Of a stretch of 64,000 nt of DNA, positions 33,915-44,018 are shown one piece after another. Where the stretch lies: positions 64,001 to 128,000 of the forward strand of contig CAWKHF010000001.1 of the NCBI GenBank assembly GCA_963849325.1, read 5' to 3'. A program made the translations under genes and the position numbers. The first letter of the stretch is position 1, and every line of letters begins with the position of its first letter. A model generated the notes under the pieces. That model did not search any database. It saw nothing but the letters and a program-made list of their open reading frames with translations, and had not been told where the DNA came from. The DNA is from an uncultured Planctomycetota bacterium (GTDB lineage Bacteria; Planctomycetota; Planctomycetia; Gemmatales; Gemmataceae).

Positions 33915-35191
33915 ATGTTGACACTTTGGGGCCAAAGGCAGAAGTTCTGCGACGGATTGTCGCGGCGAAACTTCCTCAAGATCGGCGCCTTCGGCGCCGG
34001 CCTGACCTTGGCCGAGATGCTGCGGCTGCGCGCCGCGAGCCGGCACCGGCTCGTCGAACAAGGCCGCCATCATGATCTACCTGCCGGGGGGCCCGTCGCA
34101 CATGGACATGTACGACCTCAAGCCGGACGCACCCAAGGAATTCCGCGGCGAGTTCAAGCCGATCGCCACCAACGTGCCCGGCGTGCAGATCTGCGAGCAC
34201 TTCCCGCTGCAGGCGAAGATGTGGGACAAGCTGGCCGTGCGTCCGCTCGCTCGTCTCCGTCGATGAGCACTCCGACTCGCTGGTCATGACCGGCTACAGC
34301 GAGAACGACAACCGCACGGCCCATCATCCGTCGTTCGGCGCCGTGATGTCGAAGCTGCGCGGCGGCGCCAACGACATCCCGCCGTTCGTCAGTCTGCGCG
34401 GCATGTCGCGCTCGGCACCGAGCCCGGCTATCTCGGCGTGGCGCATCGGCCGTTCACGCCGGACGGTCCCGGCTTCCAGAACCTGCGCCTGGCCGGCGGC
34501 GTCGATGCTGGCCGCATGGACGACCGCAAATCGCTGCTGTCCAACTTCGACGACGTTCGCCGCGACATCGACGCCAGCGGCACCATGAAGGGCCTCGACT
34601 CGTTCACCGCGCGCGCCTTCGACATGATCGCGTCGGGCAACGTGCGCAAGGCCCTCGACCTGAGCAAGGAGGAGCCGCGCTCGCGCGACCGCTACAAGGG
34701 CATCGAGCAGTTCCTGACGGCTCGCCGTCTGGTCGAGGCCGGCGTCGGCTGCGTCACGCTGTCCATCGGCGGTTGGGACACGCACAGCAGCAACTTCAAG
34801 ACCCTGCGGCGGCAGCTGCCGGAGGTGGACCGCGGCATCGCCAACCTGATCCAGGATCTGCACGACCGCGGCATGGACAAGGACGTGGTGACGGTGATGT
34901 GGGGCGAGTTCGGCCGCACGCCGAAGATCAACAACAGCGACGGCGGCCGCGATCACTGGGCGCCGGTCATGAGCGCCCTGGTGGCCGGCGGCGGCCTCAA
35001 GATGGGCCAGGCCATCGGCACGCACCAACGCCCGCGGCGAGTATCCCAAGGACCGCCGCGTCACCGTGCCGCAGGTGCTCAGCACGATGTATCACGCCAT
35101 GGGCATCGATCCGTCGCAGACGTTCCCCAACGGCAGCGGCCGGCCGATGTACATCCTCGACGACCGCGAGCCGGTCAGCGAATTGATCTGA
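33915..35191 (+). CDS. DUF1501 family protein (frameshifted)
   Basis: [49 protein letters not shown]. Confidence 0.92.
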
Positions 35192-35196
35192 GAGGA

Positions 35197-35309
35197 GGGA
35201 ATAGGGAATAGGGAATAGGGAATAGGGAAGAGACTTTTTCTCTCTTTCCTATTCCCTATTCCCTATTCCCTATTCCCTATTCCCTATTCCCTATTCCCTA
35301 TTCCCTATT
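35197..35309. repeat. Inverted heptamer arrays (GGGAATA)x4 / (TATTCCC)x8
   Basis: Direct count. Lies between convergent genes. Confidence 0.95.
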
Positions 35310-35315
35310 TCTTCA

Positions 35316-36482
35316 TCAACGTCGGCCGCTGGCGCCATAGCGCAGGTTCAGGTAAATAAAGACGTTGGCCACAATCCAGTAGGTGAGCATCGGACCGCAG
35401 GCCAGCCCCAGCAGGACGGCACGCATTCCGTCGGCCACCTCGTGCAGCTCTTGGGGTGGACAGAACGTCGGCAGGAACAACGGGGCGATCAGCAGCAGAA
35501 ACGGCGCGGTCGCCAACATGCCCAGTCCCACGGCCATCGTCTGATATAAAAATACCCGGCCGAGGTGCTGTCGCAGCAAGGCCAACCATCGCCGCAGGCC
35601 GTGTCGGAGCGAGCACTCCTCTACCACCAAGACCGACGGCATCAGCCACCAGAAGAAGAAGAGGGGCCACAAGAACGCCTCCAGGACCATGCCCAGGGCC
35701 AGGGCGGTCCCCGCGACGGTCTGCCGGATCGCGGTCTGCGAACCCTCGGGACCGGGTCCGAGCCAGTACGGCAGCCAGCGCAGGAGCACGATCAGCCCCC
35801 AGGTCGAACCGCGGACGATCACCTGCGTCAGGATCAACCGGATGGTCAGCGGGACGATGTGGGACAGCCCCTCGCGCCAGCGGGCCGGACGCAGCCGGGC
35901 CAGTTCGATGTAGGTCAACTGCGTCAGCAGCGCCGTCAGGAAATCGAGCACAATCATCGCCGCTCCGGCCAGGCACCAGGCCGGCACCAGCCGGCGACTG
36001 TCCGTCTCGAACCAGGCGGCGCGCTCGGCGGCGAGCAGAACGCCCAGGAAGAGGCCGGCCCCGAAGCCGAGCAGGATTTTCTTGGCGACGAGCGTGCTGT
36101 CGAGGGCGGCCAACAACTCCTCGACGTGGCCGCGCACACCGACGAGGTGCGGCCGAGACGAGTCCAGACGCGAACCGACGGTGGCGGAGTGTTCGACGGC
36201 GGGGTGGTTCGCCGCCTCGCCGCGACGGCCGGGCTTATGGCGGCGCGACTCCGGCGACGGGACCGGCTCGGGCGGCGGAGGCGAGGCCGAATGCTGCCCG
36301 ACCAGATCGGCGAACTCTTGCGTCCATTCCAGTGACACCCACTCGTCACTGGGTGCGCGGCGCACCGTACTGCCGAGCGGGATGTGTCCGGCGTCCACCT
36401 CGTGACGCAGGATCGCCGTGCTGGCGGCGCGGAGGATGCGCCCGTCGGGAAAGCGGACGTACCAGAAATCGGCCTGGCTCAT
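35316..36482 (-). CDS. Membrane protein with N-terminal GYF_2-like domain
   Basis: WYVRFPDG...LR..V..G.I....V...W..L....EF, followed by about 6 hydrophobic segments. Confidence 0.7.
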   Translation of the reverse strand: MSQADFWYVRFPDGRILRAASTAILRHEVDAGHIPLGSTVRRAPSDEWVSLEWTQEFADLVGQHSASPPPPEPVPSPESRRHKPGRRGEAANHPAVEHSATVGSRLDSSRPHLVGVRGHVEELLAALDSTLVAKKILLGFGAGLFLGVLLAAERAAWFETDSRRLVPAWCLAGAAMIVLDFLTALLTQLTYIELARLRPARWREGLSHIVPLTIRLILTQVIVRGSTWGLIVLLRWLPYWLGPGPEGSQTAIRQTVAGTALALGMVLEAFLWPLFFFWWLMPSVLVVEECSLRHGLRRWLALLRQHLGRVFLYQTMAVGLGMLATAPFLLLIAPLFLPTFCPPQELHEVADGMRAVLLGLACGPMLTYWIVANVFIYLNLRYGASGRR

Positions 36483-36679
36483 GGGACAACCGGGATAACG
36501 TCTCGGGCGGAAGCACTCTCCGCGAGGGAAGACGCTGTTCTTCCACCTTACGGCGGACGCCGCCCGTGCGCCAAGCGGCAACTGCGCCGATTACCCGGAA
36601 AAAACGCCGATCGCACGGCACGAGCCGCTTGCAGTCCGCAGGGCAGAGGGATAGGCTAAAGGAACCTGGAGATGTACCC

Positions 36680-37243
36680 ATGCGACGTATCCCTCGTTGT
36701 TGCGCTGTCCTGGTCTTGTTCGGTGCGGCCGTCTGTTCGGCGGAGGAGCCGTGCCAGTCGGGGCCGAAGCCAGGCCAGCGTCCGGGTCCGTATTCGTCCC
36801 TCGTCTCGGTGGGTCCGCAGCGCGGCCAGCCACACTGCTTCATCTGCGAGACGGCCGATCGGCCCGCCGTCATCGTCTTCGCCCGCACGCTCGGCGAACC
36901 GCTCGGCAAGCTCGTCCGCGGACTGGACAAGGCGCTGGTCGATCACAAGGACGCCGAACTGCGTGCCTGGGTGACGTTTCTGAGCCGCGATCAGACCGCC
37001 TTCGATCCGAAGGTCGTCGAGTGGAGCAAGAAGCAGGCCCTGCGCAACGTACCGCTGGCCGTGTTCGAGGACGTAGTCGGGCCGCCGAGCTACTTGCTGG
37101 GCCGTGATGCCGACGTGACGGTGCTGCTCGCGGTCAAGCAGAAGGTCGTCCGCAACTTCGCTTTCCGCGCCGGGGAGCTGAACGACGAACGAATCGCCGA
37201 AATCCTCAAGGCAGTACCGGAAATCACGAAGTCATCAAAGTAA
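36680..37243 (+). CDS. Secreted hypothetical protein with CxxC (possibly thioredoxin-like)
   Basis: GGAG RBS, signal peptide, HCFICE, alternating alpha/beta pattern. Confidence 0.7.
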   Translation: MRRIPRCCAVLVLFGAAVCSAEEPCQSGPKPGQRPGPYSSLVSVGPQRGQPHCFICETADRPAVIVFARTLGEPLGKLVRGLDKALVDHKDAELRAWVTFLSRDQTAFDPKVVEWSKKQALRNVPLAVFEDVVGPPSYLLGRDADVTVLLAVKQKVVRNFAFRAGELNDERIAEILKAVPEITKSSK

Positions 37244-37315: not shown

Positions 37316-38963
37316 CTATCGTACGCGGGCCTGGAAACGAACGACGCCGCTGGTCCCCGGCATCAACCGGCCGCTGATTTCCCAGCGCAGAATGACGGAG
37401 CCGGCCTCGTTGGCCTGCGTCGTGAACACCGCCGGGCGGTCGGACTGGGCGCTGCCGGGAACATACTCCAGGCGCGTCGTCAGACTGTCGGTGACGGCCA
37501 CGTCCGTGATCGGTCGGCCGCCGTGGTTGCTGTATTTCAAGAGGAACGTCACAACGTCGCCGACGTTGGCGGCGTGACGATCGGCGCACTTGATCAGGAC
37601 GAGCGGCTTGTCCGGCGGGCAGGGCGTCTCGTTGCAACAAACCGTCAGGTCGCGCGTCTCCACCTCGGCCCGGACAACCTGTGGCCCCGCCTCGACGCGA
37701 CCGACCACCGCCGTGCCGACCACCTGCTCCGTCCCCTGCACGTTGACGCGGTTACTCAACTGACGCGCCAGCTCCATTTGTTTCGCCAGCCGCGCGCGTT
37801 CGACCTCGCTGAGGGTCCGCACGGCCTTCGTGTCCAGCAGGGCAATCGGCCCGAGCGGGACGTCCATCGCATCGAGCACTTCCAGGTGGATCAAGCCGCC
37901 GGTGCCCGTGACGGCTTCGTTGACGCTCGGCCGGGCCCGGCCGTGCGCTCCCTGGAGTTGCTCGTATTTGCGTGCCTGCAACGGGGGCGTGAGTACGTCG
38001 AGGCGTTCGTGGAATTGCACGCGGCGAGCGTCGTTGACGGCCTGGACGCTGTCATATCGGCTTAGCGGCGTCTGACCGCGCAACACGGCATAGCGCGGCA
38101 CGCACAGGCAGACGCGATTGGAGTGCGTGACGTGGCGTCGGCCGTGGCTGTCGGTGTACTCGGCGACGGTGTCCTCCGGCTCGACGCCGGCCAACCGGCC
38201 GTCGGCGTCGAAGCCGGCGCGGTTGCCCTGGTCGCCGCCGTCGTGCAGGCACTCCTCTTCGGGCGGTTTCGGGCCGTACCGTGGATCGAAAAACGGCCGG
38301 CAATCCCAGAGCAGGCAGGGCGGTCGAGCCGCCAGCAGAATCACCTTCTCGCCGGGATGCAAGATCGTGCCCGGCACCGACGATTGAGCCAGTTCCTCGT
38401 CGGACACCAGCAGACGGCCGCCCATGCGGATGACGAGCATGGGCCGGCCGCGGTCGCGCGCCTCGGCCAGCAAATTCCGGCCGGGCGGCAGGTCGGTCTC
38501 GGTCGGCAGGTCGGGCGATGTCGTGGTCGGCAGCGCGTGGTCGGGGTGCTCCAGGTATACCACCTTGGTAATCAGGTTGCCGGCCAGGACGCTTTCGACG
38601 TCGTCGTCGGTCAGCACGACAGGAGCAGGATAGGCGGAGGCGTTCAGCCGCGGCGGCAGATTCAAACTGCCGCGTACTTCCAGCGTCGGATAGATGCTGA
38701 CGCCGGGACGGCCCGGCAGGTGGCTGAGCTGCACGCGGTAGAAATAGCCCGGCCTCATACCGACGGCCACCGGGGCGTCGAAGGCCCGGCCGCGCGACTG
38801 CCCCTGGTAGAAGGTCGCCCGCAGGCCCGGCGGGCCGAGGAAGCGGACGAACAGCAGCGGCGAGGGGCCGCGCCCCGGCAGGGGCGGGACCATCTGAGCG
38901 ACCGCCGGCGCCGCCACGGCGGCCAGCAGCACGAGCAGCCAGCTTGAGATGACGGAGGTTCAT
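37316..38963 (-). CDS. Secreted protein: unnamed N-terminal domain plus C-terminal DUF11
   Basis: Signal peptide (indel near the start). C-terminal KCAD..A.VGDVVTF.L.YSN.G...V.DSL..RLEYVPGS. Confidence 0.85.
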
Positions 38964-38995
38964 GCGGAGATCCGAGGGTAGGTATCATCGGCCAG

Positions 38996-39065
38996 TCCGT
39001 TTAGCCGCGACGCGCAGCGGAGCGCGGGGCTTACCGCGCTCCGCTGCGCGTCGCGGCTAAACGGA
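38996..39065. repeat. Family A REP doublet, copy 5
   Basis: Same arms. Confidence 0.95.
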
Positions 39066-39084
39066 GTTATGGTTCCACAAACGC

Positions 39085-40590
39085 TTAGCGTGCGCCGGGC
39101 GCGGGTCGGGAGTCCGACGGTCCCCAGCTGGTGAGCTGGCCGGCCAACTCGGCCAGGGTCGGCCGGCGTCGGGGCGTCTGCTGCGTTTGCTTCTGCGACT
39201 CGACCGGCGGCGCGAAGGGGCTATACTGCGCCTGCTGCACATTGCCGGGCGGCGGAATGGCCGCGCCCAGTGGCGTGCCCGGCTGACCGGGGAAAGGCGC
39301 GCCTACCGGGGACGTGTTCGGCGGAACCGGCATCTGCGGCCCGGACGCGCCCGGCACCGGCGGCAACATCTGGCCCGGTGGCACCAGGTTCGGATTCGGC
39401 GCCTCCGGCAGCGGCATCTGACCGTTCACCACCCCGTAGGGCACCATCGGCGGACGCGGCGGCAGACCCGGTCCCATCTGTCCCATCTGCATGGGCATGC
39501 CTGGCGCGGCCGGCATACCCGGCGGCATCTGTCCCGGCGGATGCACCGCCTGCTGCTGGAATGGGTTGGGCGCCTCCATCGACGGCGTATTCGGCGCCTC
39601 CAGGTCGATATTGCCCAGCCGGATCACCAGCAGGATGCTGCCGCGCCGCTTGGCCTCGACGATCGGATCGACGCCCGGCTCCAGCCGCGACGACACCACC
39701 TCGTCCGGTCCCGTCGCCGCCAGATCCTGGAATTGCGGATCGGGCAGGTAGATGACCTTGACCACGAAATTGCCCGCCGCCACCTGCTCGAAGTCCTCCT
39801 CGGTGAAGGCGACCGGCACGGCACTGTGGGCCAGGAACGTGCACGTCTTGGCCTTGGACGGCACCACTTCCAGGGTCGGATACAGCTCGACGCCCGGCCG
39901 ATTGGGAATGTCGCTCAGCTTGAGGCGATAGATCGACGCTTGCAGGAAGTTGTAGCGTGCCGGCGCTTCGAGGAACTGCGGCCCGAAGCCGCCGCGGCCG
40001 TCGGCGGTCGGTCCATACCAGGCGATCTTCATGCCGGCCGGGCCGACGAAGCGCACCTCGGTGCGCTGAATGGGAAAAGGCGCGGCCACGCCGCCAGTGA
40101 GGGCGCCGACGGCGGCGACGGCCCCCGGCGGACGCATGCCCGGCGGCAAAACGCCCGGCGGCATGCCGGCGATGCCCGGCGGCGAGATCAGTTGTCCCGG
40201 CGGCATCAGGCCCGGCGGCATCGGACCACCGGCCCCCGGCATGGGGCAGGCGCCGCCGGCGCACTGTCCGCCGACCGGCACGATCGGCAAAGCGCTATCC
40301 TTGAAGTAGCCGCTCTGCTGGACCAACTCCAGCGGCATGCTCTGCGCCAGCATGGCGCGAGCGGCATCCGTCCCGTTGGGCGGCTTGACGTTGTACGGCG
40401 CCGCCATCGCCACGGGTTGACCCCACGGGCCTTGCACCGTCGCCACCTCCGGCATCGACTGCGGACCCCAATGGACGCCGTCGGGCGCCTCCTTGTTCCA
40501 GTACTGGCTCATGAAAGGCCCGCCCAGCGCCGAGGCCGCGCCGCCGCCCAGCACGGCCAGGAGCAGCAGGATCGCCCGGGTTCGCTTCAT
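39085..40590 (-). CDS. Secreted Pro/Gly/Met-rich protein with a central domain paralogous to 37316..38963
   Basis: Signal peptide, VRFVGP.G, YRLKLS.IP.RPGV.LYPTLEV, GN.V.KV.YL, RG..LLVIRLG. Confidence 0.85.
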   Translation of the reverse strand: MKRTRAILLLLAVLGGGAASALGGPFMSQYWNKEAPDGVHWGPQSMPEVATVQGPWGQPVAMAAPYNVKPPNGTDAARAMLAQSMPLELVQQSGYFKDSALPIVPVGGQCAGGACPMPGAGGPMPPGLMPPGQLISPPGIAGMPPGVLPPGMRPPGAVAAVGALTGGVAAPFPIQRTEVRFVGPAGMKIAWYGPTADGRGGFGPQFLEAPARYNFLQASIYRLKLSDIPNRPGVELYPTLEVVPSKAKTCTFLAHSAVPVAFTEEDFEQVAAGNFVVKVIYLPDPQFQDLAATGPDEVVSSRLEPGVDPIVEAKRRGSILLVIRLGNIDLEAPNTPSMEAPNPFQQQAVHPPGQMPPGMPAAPGMPMQMGQMGPGLPPRPPMVPYGVVNGQMPLPEAPNPNLVPPGQMLPPVPGASGPQMPVPPNTSPVGAPFPGQPGTPLGAAIPPPGNVQQAQYSPFAPPVESQKQTQQTPRRRPTLAELAGQLTSWGPSDSRPAPGAR

Positions 40591-40639
40591 ACTTCCCCCC
40601 TAGTTACGGTTAGCCTGTTCCGGCGAACGGTTTCCCACC

Positions 40640-40692
40640 AGCCCGGAGCGCTAGCGACGGGTTGCTACAACCCGTCGCTAGCGCTCCGAGCT
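40640..40692. repeat. REP-like palindrome (agcccg.agcgc.agcgacggg family)
   Basis: Related to the 60583 copy. Confidence 0.85.
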
Positions 40693-40819
40693 AGTAGGTC
40701 ATCGGCGCACCCCGAGGGCGACGCGCAGTGTCCAGTTCGTCTTTTGTCTTTCCCCTCCTGTGGGTATAAGTCGGCCCGCCGTGCGGATGATCTTTCGTCA
40801 AACCCGGAAGGCTTTACCC

Positions 40820-41788
40820 ATGTGGATGTACCGATTCCTTCTGGCGATTCTCGGCGGCAGCTGCCTGGTGGTCCTGTCGGCCACGTTGACGCGGACGGCG
40901 GCTTCCCTGGCTCCCGTCGCTTCCGCGGCCGTCGCCGCTCCCGCCGCTGCCGAACTTCCCGCGATTTCGCCCGCTCCCGATCCACGGCCGGACCCCGAGG
41001 CCGAGCGCGGCATGGAGCGGGCCATCGAGGCGCTCAAGGGCGATCGCTTCGTCTGGCAGGAGATGGCGATCTGGCAAAAGGTCCAGCTGCCCGGTTACGC
41101 CTACGAGGCGGACGGATGCTACCGGATGGCGCCGGGACAGCGCTTCCGCCTGGAGATGCACACCCACCTGGGCGAGTCCGAGGGCACGATGCTGATGGTC
41201 AGCGATGGCCGCGATTTGTGGCAGGCCGTCCGTTCCGGCGAGGGACCGTGGGAGAACGTCACGCGCCTGAACCTGTCGGAAGTGTTCGCCGTTATGAATG
41301 GCCCATCGGGACCGCGGCTGCGCGACGAGTTCCTGCAACGGCCGCATTTCCAGGGCATGGCGCCGCTGGTACGCAACCTCCGCCATTGCCTGGTATGGGC
41401 GCGGATCGAGACGATCGAACGCCCTGCCGGCGGGCAGATTCACTTGGTCGGCGTCTGGTCGAAGGAGGACGCGATCCGGCACGCGCCGGCGGGCGAGGCG
41501 TGGCCGGCCGGCTTGCCGCGTCAGTGTCATCTGTACCTCGACGCGCGCACGCACTGGCCGCAGCGCGTCGAGTGGTGGGGTCCTCACGCCGCCGCGGGCG
41601 CCGACCGCTTGCTGGTGCAGATGGAGTTCCGTAATCCCGTCTTCGACCGTCCCTTGTCGGCGGAGGCGTGCGAACGTCTGTTCGCCTTCCAGCCCGGCGA
41701 CGCCGAGGTCGAGGACGAAACCGCGAGCGTGACCGCCGACCTGACCAACCGTGCCCGCGAGCTGGCGGCCCAAACGGCGACGCATTAG
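40820..41788 (+). CDS. Exported hypothetical protein, possibly LolA/LolB-like fold
   Basis: Signal peptide, FRLEM, LMVSDGRDLW, LYLDART.WP.RVEW, F.FQP. Confidence 0.65.
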   Translation: MWMYRFLLAILGGSCLVVLSATLTRTAASLAPVASAAVAAPAAAELPAISPAPDPRPDPEAERGMERAIEALKGDRFVWQEMAIWQKVQLPGYAYEADGCYRMAPGQRFRLEMHTHLGESEGTMLMVSDGRDLWQAVRSGEGPWENVTRLNLSEVFAVMNGPSGPRLRDEFLQRPHFQGMAPLVRNLRHCLVWARIETIERPAGGQIHLVGVWSKEDAIRHAPAGEAWPAGLPRQCHLYLDARTHWPQRVEWWGPHAAAGADRLLVQMEFRNPVFDRPLSAEACERLFAFQPGDAEVEDETASVTADLTNRARELAAQTATH

Positions 41789-41921: not shown

Positions 41922-43998
41922 TCAATCCACATACGGATCGGCGCCGAGATCCTTGAGGATTTCCTGGCGCTGGTGTTCGTGGACGAGCAGATCGACGCGG
42001 CTACGGAAGTGGCGGCGTTCGACGCGGCGCTGGGCGCGGCGAAACAGGAAGAGGTACTTGTCCCAGTCGAGGTTGCCGCCGCGCCGGCCGAACTCCTTCC
42101 ACTTCTCCTGCGTCCGGGGGCCGAGTCCTTCGAGCAGCTCGTCTTCCAGCGACAGGAAGAACTGAGCGCTGCCGGGGTCGCCCTGGCGTCCGGCGCGGCC
42201 CATGAGCTGGCGGTCGATGCGCAGCGCTTCGTGCCGCTCGGTGCCCAGGACGTGCAGGCCGCCGGCGGCCAGCACCTCGGGAGCCGGCTTGATGTCGGTG
42301 CCGCGGCCGGCCATGTTCGTGGCGATCGTCACCCGACCCGCCTGGCCCGCCTGGGCGACGATCTTCGCCTCCTGCTCGTGCTGCCGGGCGTTGAGCACCT
42401 GATGCTCGATCGCCCGCCGCCGTCAGCCGTTCGCTCAGCTTCTCCGACTTCTCCACCGAGCGCGTGCCGATCAGCACCGACCGGCCCCCGGCACGCAGTC
42501 GGCACCACCTCCTCCACCACGGCGTCGAACTTGGCGTCCTCGGTCGGGAAGACGCGGTCGGGCCAGTGGTCGCGACGGATCGGCCGGTTGGTCGGCACGC
42601 ACACCACCCAGAGCTTGTAGACGCGGCGCATCTCCCAGCGGTTCTGCAGGGCCGTGCCGGTCATGCCGGCCAGCTTCTTGTACAGGCGGAAGTAGCTCTG
42701 GAAGGTGATCTGGGCGGCGTGGTCGGACGGCATGTGTGATCGGCACGCCTCTCCTTGGCCTCGACGGCCTGGTGCAGCCCCTCGCGCCAGTGGCGATCCG
42801 GCATGCGCCGGCCGGTGAACTCGTCGATGATGACGATCTTGTCCTTGTCGATCATGTAATGCTGGTCGCGGCGGAAGCGGTAGTGCGCTTGCAGCGCCTG
42901 CTCGAGGCGCTCCTGCAGCTTGTCCATCGCTTTGCCGTGCGGCCCGGACGGCGGGTTGGAGTAGCGGGCCAGCTGCTTGCCCACGCCGGTCAGCTCGAGC
43001 TTCTGCTTCTTCGGTGTCGAAGTAGAAGTGCTCGCTCGTACTTCATCTGCTGGACGAGTTGGTCGGCCCAGAGGTAGACGATCTGCTCCTCCGGCGTGGC
43101 CGGCCGCGCTCGGCCGGCTGATGATGAGCGGCGTGCGCGCCTCGTCGATGAAGATGTTGTCGGCCTCGTCCACCAGGGCGAAGTGGTGCGGCCGCTGCAC
43201 GTTGGCGTCCTCCGGCGAGGCGCCGGCGCTCGCTCTTGAGCCAGGCGTCCCAGAACGGCGTGTCCTGGCCGCGCGCGCCGGCCACCTTGAGGCGGTCGCG
43301 CAGGAAGTCGAAGCCGAACTCCGAGGCGGTGCCGTAGGTGATGTCGCAGCGGTACGGCGCTGTGCGGTCCTGGTCGCCCATCTGCTCTGCATGACGCCGA
43401 CGCGTCAGGCCAAGGGCGTTGTAGATCGGCCCCATCCACTCGGCGTCGCGGCGGGCCAGGTAGTCGTTGACGGTGGTGACGTGGACGCCCTTGCCTTCCA
43501 GGGCGTTGAGGAACGCCGGCAGCGTGGCGATGAGCGTCTTGCCTTCGCCGGTGGCCAGCTCGGCCAGGGCGCCCTGGTGCATGACGACGCCGGCGGCCAG
43601 CTGCACGTCGAAGGGCCGCAGGCCCAGGTGACGGCGAGACGGCCACGCAGACCAGGCCGAACGCCTCCGGCAGCAGTCGTCCAGCGATTCGCCGCCGCGC
43701 GCCCGGCCGCGCAGCCGCAGGCCGGTCAGTCCGAAGCTCCGCGTCGGACAGGCGATCGTAGGTCGCTCTCCCAGTGGCGGATGCGCGGCACGTACAGGGC
43801 GGCCCGCGCCAACCGTCGCTGCCACGGCAGACCGACCAGGGCCAGCAGGGCGTTGCGCCAGCGATAACCCAGACGGTTGCGCGGCAAGGGACGGCAGGAG
43901 TGTACAACGGCTTCCGGGGATTCGGGCCGGTCACGGTCGATGCTCGCTCAAGGCGACGGACCTCCGCAAGAGACGGGCGACGTCTGGTCCGCCAGCAT
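41922..43998 (-). CDS. secA: Short SecA paralog, SecA2-like (multiple frameshifts, start approximate)
   Basis: [78 protein letters not shown]. Confidence 0.9.
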
Positions 43999-44018
43999 AC
44001 CAACACCGTCCGGCGCAG

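Follow-up and report, generated by a model that had tools for sequence, protein, structure and literature searches.

Paralogous exported proteins A and B and their divergent neighbour UP as a predicted class-wide envelope module of the Planctomycetia

Two adjacent genes and the core domain they share

The window analysed here is a 64,000-nucleotide stretch of the genome of an uncultured Gemmataceae bacterium of the class Planctomycetia (contig CAWKHF010000001.1 of assembly GCA_963849325.1). We describe two adjacent minus-strand genes in it, A and B, whose predicted exported products have a core domain of about 150 residues in common, together with the divergently oriented gene UP. The segment that an earlier, sequence-only reading had singled out coincides exactly with the two open reading frames (ORFs) of A and B. 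Both show the codon-position GC pattern of real genes, with a GC content at third codon positions (GC3) of 0.87 for A and 0.86 for B in a window of 66% GC. Their parts, and those of the upstream side, are as follows.

39085-40590, minus: gene A, 501 amino acids (aa); signal peptide, Pro/Gly/Met-rich N-terminal arm, core, Pro/Gly/Met/Gln-rich C-terminal arm
40519-40590, minus: signal peptide of A, residues 1-24, MKRTRAILLLLAVLGGGAASALGG, read from the translation; no lipobox Cys in this genome
40069-40518, minus: N-terminal arm of A, residues 25-174, low complexity (P 19%, G 15%, M 7%)
39595-40068, minus: core domain of A, residues 175-332; N-terminal beta-sandwich and alpha/beta lobe in the AlphaFold2 model
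39088-39594, minus: C-terminal arm of A, residues 333-501, low complexity (P 27%, G 11%, Q 11%, M 6.5%)
37316-38932, minus: gene B, 538 aa as listed; signal peptide, core, beta-rich middle domain, disordered linker with a helix, DUF11 domain
38408-38860, minus: core domain of B, residues 25-175, paralog of the A core (BLASTP E 3e-23; predicted local distance difference test score, pLDDT, above 90 across the stretch)
38048-38380, minus: beta-rich middle domain of B, about residues 185-295 (pLDDT 81-97 for about residues 190-290)
37322-37603, minus: C-terminal DUF11 Ig-like domain of B, residues 444-537 (PF01345, TIGR01451)
40760-41788, plus: gene UP, 342 aa, probably LolA-like; divergent from A, third member of the module
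40591-40759, no strand: divergent intergenic region between A and UP, 169 bp by coordinates

When A and B are compared by BLASTP, residues 179-326 of A align with residues 29-171 of B, with 57 of 153 positions identical (37%), 52% positives and an E value of 3e-23, a similarity that by this measure is far beyond chance. The four pairs of short motifs from which the sequence-only reading had proposed a common domain of about 150 aa all lie inside this alignment, so the domain stands. So does the architecture proposed for the two proteins. The composition of both arms of A agrees with a core set between long Pro/Gly/Met arms, and the Cys positions and the PF01345 and TIGR01451 matches of B agree with a core fused to a Cys-containing middle region and a DUF11 Ig-like domain. 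The genome in which the window lies (8.16 Mb, 14 contigs, 84.7% complete) holds exactly two copies of the core, those of A and B.

The core has no match in Pfam or NCBIfam at E<=1: A matches no family at all, and B matches DUF11-type families alone, the Pfam families matched by the whole protein being DUF11, DUF7507 and DUF7927. In the ESM Atlas, the clusters nearest to the A core are unnamed planctomycete hypothetical proteins only. Modelled from a 69-row alignment, the A core reaches a pLDDT of 88.8 and a predicted template modelling score (pTM) of 0.85; it consists of a beta-sandwich over about domain residues 1-109, followed by an alpha/beta lobe. Foldseek gave no match in the PDB at E<=1e-3 for either the A core or the whole of B. 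An exhaustive VIA-align comparison with the PDB placed transthyretin-like, CnaB and CBM20 sandwiches on residues 1-109 of the A core only, at Z 5.2 to 4.0 and a root-mean-square deviation (rmsd) of 3-4 A over 68-91 aligned residues (best match Z 5.2, rmsd 3.6 A, 79 residues); Z values below 8 are common for unrelated sandwiches in this comparison.

Twelve diverse cores have five invariant or near-invariant residues in common, V105, A139, G143, D92 and V96, of which only one is polar; such a set does not resemble an active site. These residues bear on the possibility that the core acts enzymatically on some envelope substrate. Its conservation would fit such a role and we found nothing further in its favour, whereas the diverse cores keep no catalytic-type residues in common and no enzyme family of Pfam or NCBIfam includes the domain. 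Membership in such a family would have refuted the sequence-only reading by its own terms. We consider an enzymatic role extremely improbable.

The model of the whole of B (pLDDT 77.3, pTM 0.70) has a confident core, middle domain (about residues 190-290) and DUF11 domain, with two disordered stretches around a helix in residues 292-433. The alignment consensus of the middle domain holds the conserved motifs E-x-L-x-DGGD, DTVAEY and SNRV..PRF, and five of the nine Cys of B, which together span residues 206-449, fall within it (206, 211, 228, 275 and 277). The C-terminal domain, and not the core, is covered by PF01345 (30 bits against a cut-off of 24.6, E 7e-7) and TIGR01451 (37.9 bits against a cut-off of 24, E 1e-9), which places it within the family. 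It superposes at Z 7-8.7 on Ig-like sandwiches from pilins, from the CLIPPER adhesin (9ifr) and from mu-homology domains. Because this domain filled the match list of the whole-protein comparison, that list is uninformative on the middle domain. A complex prediction for the A core with the B core scored 0.00 against a mark of 0.32 and counts neither for nor against binding.

Conservation of the pair and of its neighbour

A search of 1.84 billion representative proteins gave 1596 relatives of A at E<=1e-3, of which 390 reach E<=1e-30. A word-indexed search returned 693 relatives of B at E<=1e-3; these are often attributed to Gemmataceae, where full-length forms are about 547 aa, and are named at most as "DUF11 / TIGR01451 repeat protein". 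In an even sample of the phylum, 26 of 401 genomes had a match to the core, namely the window's own genome, all 23 others of its class and two from a single other family; outside the class, then, 2 of 377 genomes matched, each weakly and once. Of 301 genomes sampled from the class, 295 matched a profile built from 69 cores; they cover all 22 families sampled, and the number of copies per matching genome was nearly always exactly two. The six class genomes that gave no match are 78-98% complete.

The only relatives seen outside the class, L106:7016-7630 (minus) and L107:5576-6142 (minus), are small lipoproteins of about 190-205 aa with the lipobox AVAGC and little beyond the core. The ancestral form of the core may have looked like them.

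The order of the two genes is as constant as their presence. Among 80 loci of the Gemmataceae type, 73 extend 1100 bp or more downstream of A (the other seven end within 878 bp), and in all 73 the B core follows on the same strand, 250-1409 bp downstream. The same order on the same strand was found in 23 of 23 loci of the phylum sample, in 20 of 20 from further families and in 5 of 5 more, which brings the total to 121 of 121 loci with room. The sequence-only reading would have been undermined by genes that are rarely neighbours; instead B comes after A wherever there is space for it. In a quick maximum-likelihood tree, whose careful counterpart was left unfinished, a single branch divides 37 A cores from 32 B cores with full support (SH-aLRT, the approximate likelihood-ratio test, 100). 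Similar family groupings recur in the A half and the B half, which puts the duplication before the divergence of the families sampled, in agreement with the earlier suggestion that A and B are old paralogs. B evolves faster than A.

The divergent gene UP accompanies the pair. By a profile of 32 orthologues, A has it as its neighbour in 46 of 47 loci of other families with room, and strong matches to UP occur in the class only, one per genome, with weak partial matches alone elsewhere. The 169 bp between UP and A are presumably a shared promoter region. UP has no Pfam family at E<=1e-3, and its 32 orthologues together gave a single Pfam match at E<=1, to DUF2092, at E 0.023 in one of the 32. 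Its profile matches LolA chains among PDB sequences colinearly, at sub-threshold E values of 0.13-0.6, and its nearest named ESM Atlas clusters are DUF1571, DUF2092 and MucB_RseB, with scores of 0.90-0.92. These three hints are weak and mutually consistent, and on their strength UP is probably LolA-like. UP does not match the LolA model PF03548, and a search of the window's whole genome, 84.7% complete as noted, found nothing with that model.

The way B is built varies between families. In the window's own family (f1), core, middle domain and DUF11 domain lie in one protein in 66 of 72 loci with a DUF11 match, and the six unfused loci may be frame errors in metagenome-assembled genomes. B is also one protein in f105, f107 and f108. 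In nine other families (f2, f3, f4, f112, f113, f115, f117, f119 and f121) two genes encode it: B1, a signal peptide with the core, and B2, the N-terminal part of which is the middle domain and which ends in the DUF11 domain. That the same parts occur fused in some families and separate in others is a classic indication that B1 and B2 work together.

Lipid anchors vary as well. The signal peptides of A and B in the window have no Cys in or just after them, as read from the translations. Among the families examined, f1 and f107 are the only ones in which A has no lipobox Cys; in the Planctomycetaceae (f2, with Gimesia, Planctopirus and Schlesneria) the lipobox is a conserved ...LVVVCVGC followed by A. 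In most of the split loci compared, B2 has a lipobox Cys too (28 of the 29 rows are B2). The view of A and B as exported envelope proteins thus gains from the signal peptides found here and from the lipoprotein signals of many relatives. After the lipobox, the A orthologues of other families have the motif LPPAxxLxxPGPGVxGPGPGV in common (41 N-termini of A compared), which the N-terminal arm of A in the window keeps only in degenerate form.

The listed start of B is a GTG at 38932. Relatives of B are about 10 residues longer and begin MK(L/P).. upstream of this codon. At 38963 an ATG stands out of frame by a single base; B probably starts there, and the assembly probably has a one-base error. 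Two further genes of the window are broken in a comparable way. A plus-strand DUF1501-family gene at 33915-35211 is spread over three frames (33915-34289, 34286-34588 and 34438-35211), and SecA, on the minus strand at 41922-44006, is present only as pieces in three frames, its SecA_DEAD and P-loop domains being divided among the ORFs 43043-43825, 42661-43392, 42329-42733 and 41922-42398. The pieces could be a decayed secA paralog or, more likely, the product of assembly indel errors. Taken together, the SecA pieces, the broken DUF1501 gene and the start of B point to scattered one-base errors in this assembly.

Two other ORFs lie on the downstream side of B. A small gene at 36800-37243 (plus), convergent with B and without a Pfam family, is 78-89% identical in the closest relatives and weakly similar in some others; at 35316-36581 (minus) there is a 421-aa ORF, also without a Pfam family.

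Re-use of the core and the role of the module

The core is not confined to A and B. A full A-type core, 45-58% identical, is part of ten proteins that far exceed A in length. Three of them have extracytoplasmic function (ECF) sigma-factor domains and two are Ser/Thr kinases, one of which also has WD40 repeats; another combines an M56 peptidase with a PQQ propeller, and one more is a WD40 protein (the core-bearing signalling proteins listed are P0389, P0392, P0394, P0391, P0396, P0390 and P0393). Where the cytoplasmic module is a sigma, kinase or WD40 one, a single transmembrane-like segment separates it from the core. Judged from this domain order, the core is there a predicted periplasmic sensor end, and thereby a new sensor domain of planctomycete signalling proteins. 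A further kinase with a divergent copy of the core is encoded in a Planctomycetaceae genome (L108:4925-7675).

Such proteins raise the idea that A is itself a reporter of envelope state, a lipoprotein that is read by kinases and by sigma/anti-sigma proteins bearing the same domain. RcsF and NlpE are models for a lipoprotein reporter. The periplasmic cores of the three ECF-sigma proteins, the two kinases and the M56-type protein, and that of the Planctomycetaceae kinase, would fit this role. The sensor fusions are scattered over ten long proteins, however, as against a module of A, B and UP that is universal, and most genomes of the class hold only the two copies that belong to the module. We regard such a reporter role of A as very unlikely.

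Four divergent metagenome clusters (P0147, P0274, P0139 and P0141; 31-67% identical overall) join a short secretin to a C-terminal A-type core about 60% identical to that of A; the secretin domain of P0147 matches PF00263 at E 3e-21. Having secretin and core in one chain suggests that A, with B, could be a pilotin-like or ring-forming partner of secretins, the LolA-like protein delivering the lipoproteins. Pilotins are small outer membrane (OM) lipoproteins that bind the C-terminus of secretins and depend on the Lol pathway. Several observations speak against this. Queried by tblastn with the secretin portions of P0147 and P0141, neither the 209 module loci nor the window yielded a secretin gene, Pfam shows no PF00263 domain in A or B, and no full-length fusion of secretin and core turned up in 201 class genomes. 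The fusions are rare, four clusters against hundreds of plain A genes, and the core could be a generic binding module that a secretin has borrowed. A role as secretin accessory therefore seems improbable to us.

Metagenome scans for the context of the fusions, made with P0141 and P0277, gave no match. Among class genomes, the unfused secretin nearest to those of the fusions (L221:8882-10387) adjoins a gene for a TPR protein and not the module; in the segment L221:8882-14372, from a Gemmataceae-family genome, this gene is accompanied by one for a second secretin, which is CpaC-like and bears a BON domain. In one genus of f107, A seemed to be extended by a secretin (query range 353-565). No secretin domain is present there; we rejected the extension because the similarity is of low complexity and the ORFs are over-long and lie on the strand opposite UP.

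The sequence-only reading had seen in A and B the major and minor subunits of a heteropolymeric structure of the envelope or of an appendage, which could be a surface layer or a fibre. The classic planctomycete envelope fraction is a proteinaceous one rich in Pro and Cys, which the Pro-rich composition of A echoes. The conserved pairing of the paralogs and the DUF11 Ig-like domain, with its Z of 6.5-7.9 to Gram-positive pilin domains, are compatible with this idea too. This part of the earlier proposal gained no support, however, since nothing that we found points to polymerisation. Each genome has one copy of each gene, A and B2 carry lipid anchors in most families, the neighbour is LolA-like, and the core is re-used as the sensor end of signalling proteins. 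B has no match to an isopeptide domain (TIGR04226, 15.2 bits against a cut-off of 30) and no sortase motif, its end ...VVRFQARVR having neither LPXTG nor a hydrophobic tail, and no assembly machinery is conserved beside the genes. We think a polymer quite improbable.

By their sequences and gene order, A and B appear to be ancient paralogous exported proteins that form, with UP, a class-wide envelope module. The best explanation of this module, to which we give about an even chance of being right, is a non-enzymatic, membrane-anchored periplasmic binding complex, either an adaptor or a tether. The 150-residue domain would be a periplasmic binding module. In A, it would be a globular domain held between long flexible Pro/Gly-rich arms with short conserved motifs and, in most families, tethered to a membrane by an N-terminal lipid. 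The B core would work physically with the beta-rich middle domain and the DUF11 Ig-like domain, as one chain here and as a soluble B1 with a lipoprotein B2 in other families, and the LolA-like UP would handle the lipidated members. The complex would then hold or sense another component of the envelope. In this genome both proteins have plain signal peptides, and A and B would thus be held by protein contacts rather than by lipid. Single copies, lipid anchors, a LolA-like neighbour and re-use as a sensor fit a binding complex better than a filament. Beyond the homology, export signals, synteny, phyletic range, fusion and split pattern and domain re-use documented above, we infer that A, B and UP associate physically, that they are located at a membrane, and that they bind a ligand.

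Several observations weigh against a binding complex of this kind. The fold matches of the core, at Z of about 5, are generic. The short motifs conserved in the arms could suit polymerisation just as well. The lipid anchor of A is lost in f1 and f107, and that of B2 wherever B is fused, so lipid anchoring cannot be essential to the mechanism. The assignment of UP to LolA-like proteins is sub-threshold by sequence, and in one complete-looking locus (L083) UP is missing beside A and a different gene stands upstream.

In one specific form of the argument, A (with B2) would be an OM lipoprotein whose core binds the cell wall, with arms that set or buffer the width of the enlarged periplasm. The Planctomycetia would thereby have a means of attaching their OM, which they otherwise seem not to possess. 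Wall-binding modules such as AMIN, LysM and PASTA occupy positions in other bacteria comparable to those of the core, which is fused to secretins and to the sensor ends of kinases. A lipobox, a long linker and a globular domain are found together in most families, and the module is class-wide and essentially single-copy. Starch-binding CBM20 domains are among the weak matches of the sandwich (Z 4.0-4.7). The window's own genome has one weak match to the OmpA domain (PF00691), 28.7 bits, on contig 2, and passages of a survey of OM tethers report that no known tethering system is detectable in Planctomycetes and that a novel one may exist (bioRxiv 10.1101/2021.05.31.446380). On the other side, the core has no similarity to known peptidoglycan-binding domains in Pfam or NCBIfam, neither A nor B matches the OmpA/Pal domain PF00691 at E<=1, the fold matches are the generic ones given above, and A has no lipid anchor in this genome or in f107. 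We hold an OM tether to be possible, if rather unlikely.

It is tempting to speculate further that the core is a novel domain that binds the wall or a partner, and the module the missing OM attachment and organising system of the Planctomycetia, a bolder claim that we consider doubtful. If it were true, lipid-anchored proteins on long elastic arms would tie the OM and secretin channels to the wall, the unusually wide periplasm would be spanned by those arms, and the core would have been copied into kinases and ECF sigma systems as a monitor of the link between OM and wall.

Passages on Planctomycetia describe a greatly enlarged periplasm and division by budding (PMC11958385) and crateriform structures on the cell surface (PMC5394234). 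We found no description of the module in the full-text literature searched; papers with both "DUF11" and "planctomycet*" have other subjects, to judge by title and abstract, and the module goes unmentioned in main-text passages of a transposon study of Planctopirus limnophila (PMC10632474). A module of three or four genes found in nearly every member of the class and almost nowhere else probably does a basic job in the envelope. It is a concrete candidate for an envelope function that defines the lineage, and one open to genetic tests, and its core would add a new periplasmic sensor domain to bacterial signalling.

Comparison with known systems

The neighbourhood of UP recalls carriers of the LolA/LolB type that are encoded beside their cargo (PF03548; DUF1571, DUF2092, MucB_RseB), in that a LolA-like gene adjoins genes for lipoproteins, A and B2. 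UP differs in its length of about 340 aa, nearly twice that of the matched LolA chains (166-209 aa), in failing PF03548 and in being class-specific; moreover, A and B have no lipobox here.

LpoB/LpoA, RcsF and Pal/Lpp are OM lipoproteins that span the periplasm by means of long disordered linkers. Most A orthologues have the same plan of a lipobox, a flexible low-complexity linker and a small globular domain. We found no relation in sequence or fold between these proteins and A, which differs from them in the second long arm after the domain and in having a paralogous partner.

Secretin accessory proteins include the pilotins and the beta-sandwich partners PilP and GspC. The likeness here lies in a lipoprotein with a disordered region and a beta-sandwich, and in the A-type core at the C-termini of some secretins. 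No homology was detected, however, and the module is not encoded beside secretin genes.

For B, the closest structures are DUF11/TIGR01451 proteins of the pilin type and the CLIPPER adhesin (PDB 9ifr, 5xcc, 3kpt), on which its last 95 residues superpose at Z 7-8. Unlike these, B has a single DUF11 domain, no sortase signal and no isopeptide-domain match, and its core and middle domain have no counterpart there.

Chlamydiae, which belong to the same PVC superphylum (Planctomycetes, Verrucomicrobia, Chlamydiae), have OmcA, a small lipoprotein, and OmcB, a Cys-rich protein with DUF11 repeats. As in the module, adjacent genes there encode a lipoprotein and an exported protein that contains Cys and bears DUF11. 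B has only 9 Cys, however, no chlamydial outer membrane protein family was matched in Pfam at E<=1, and the core of A and B was not seen outside Planctomycetota in the searches made.

Set beside these systems, the core has neither a named family nor a convincing solved relative, while the parts of which the module is made, lipoproteins, a LolA-like protein and an Ig-like domain, are ordinary building blocks of bacterial envelopes.

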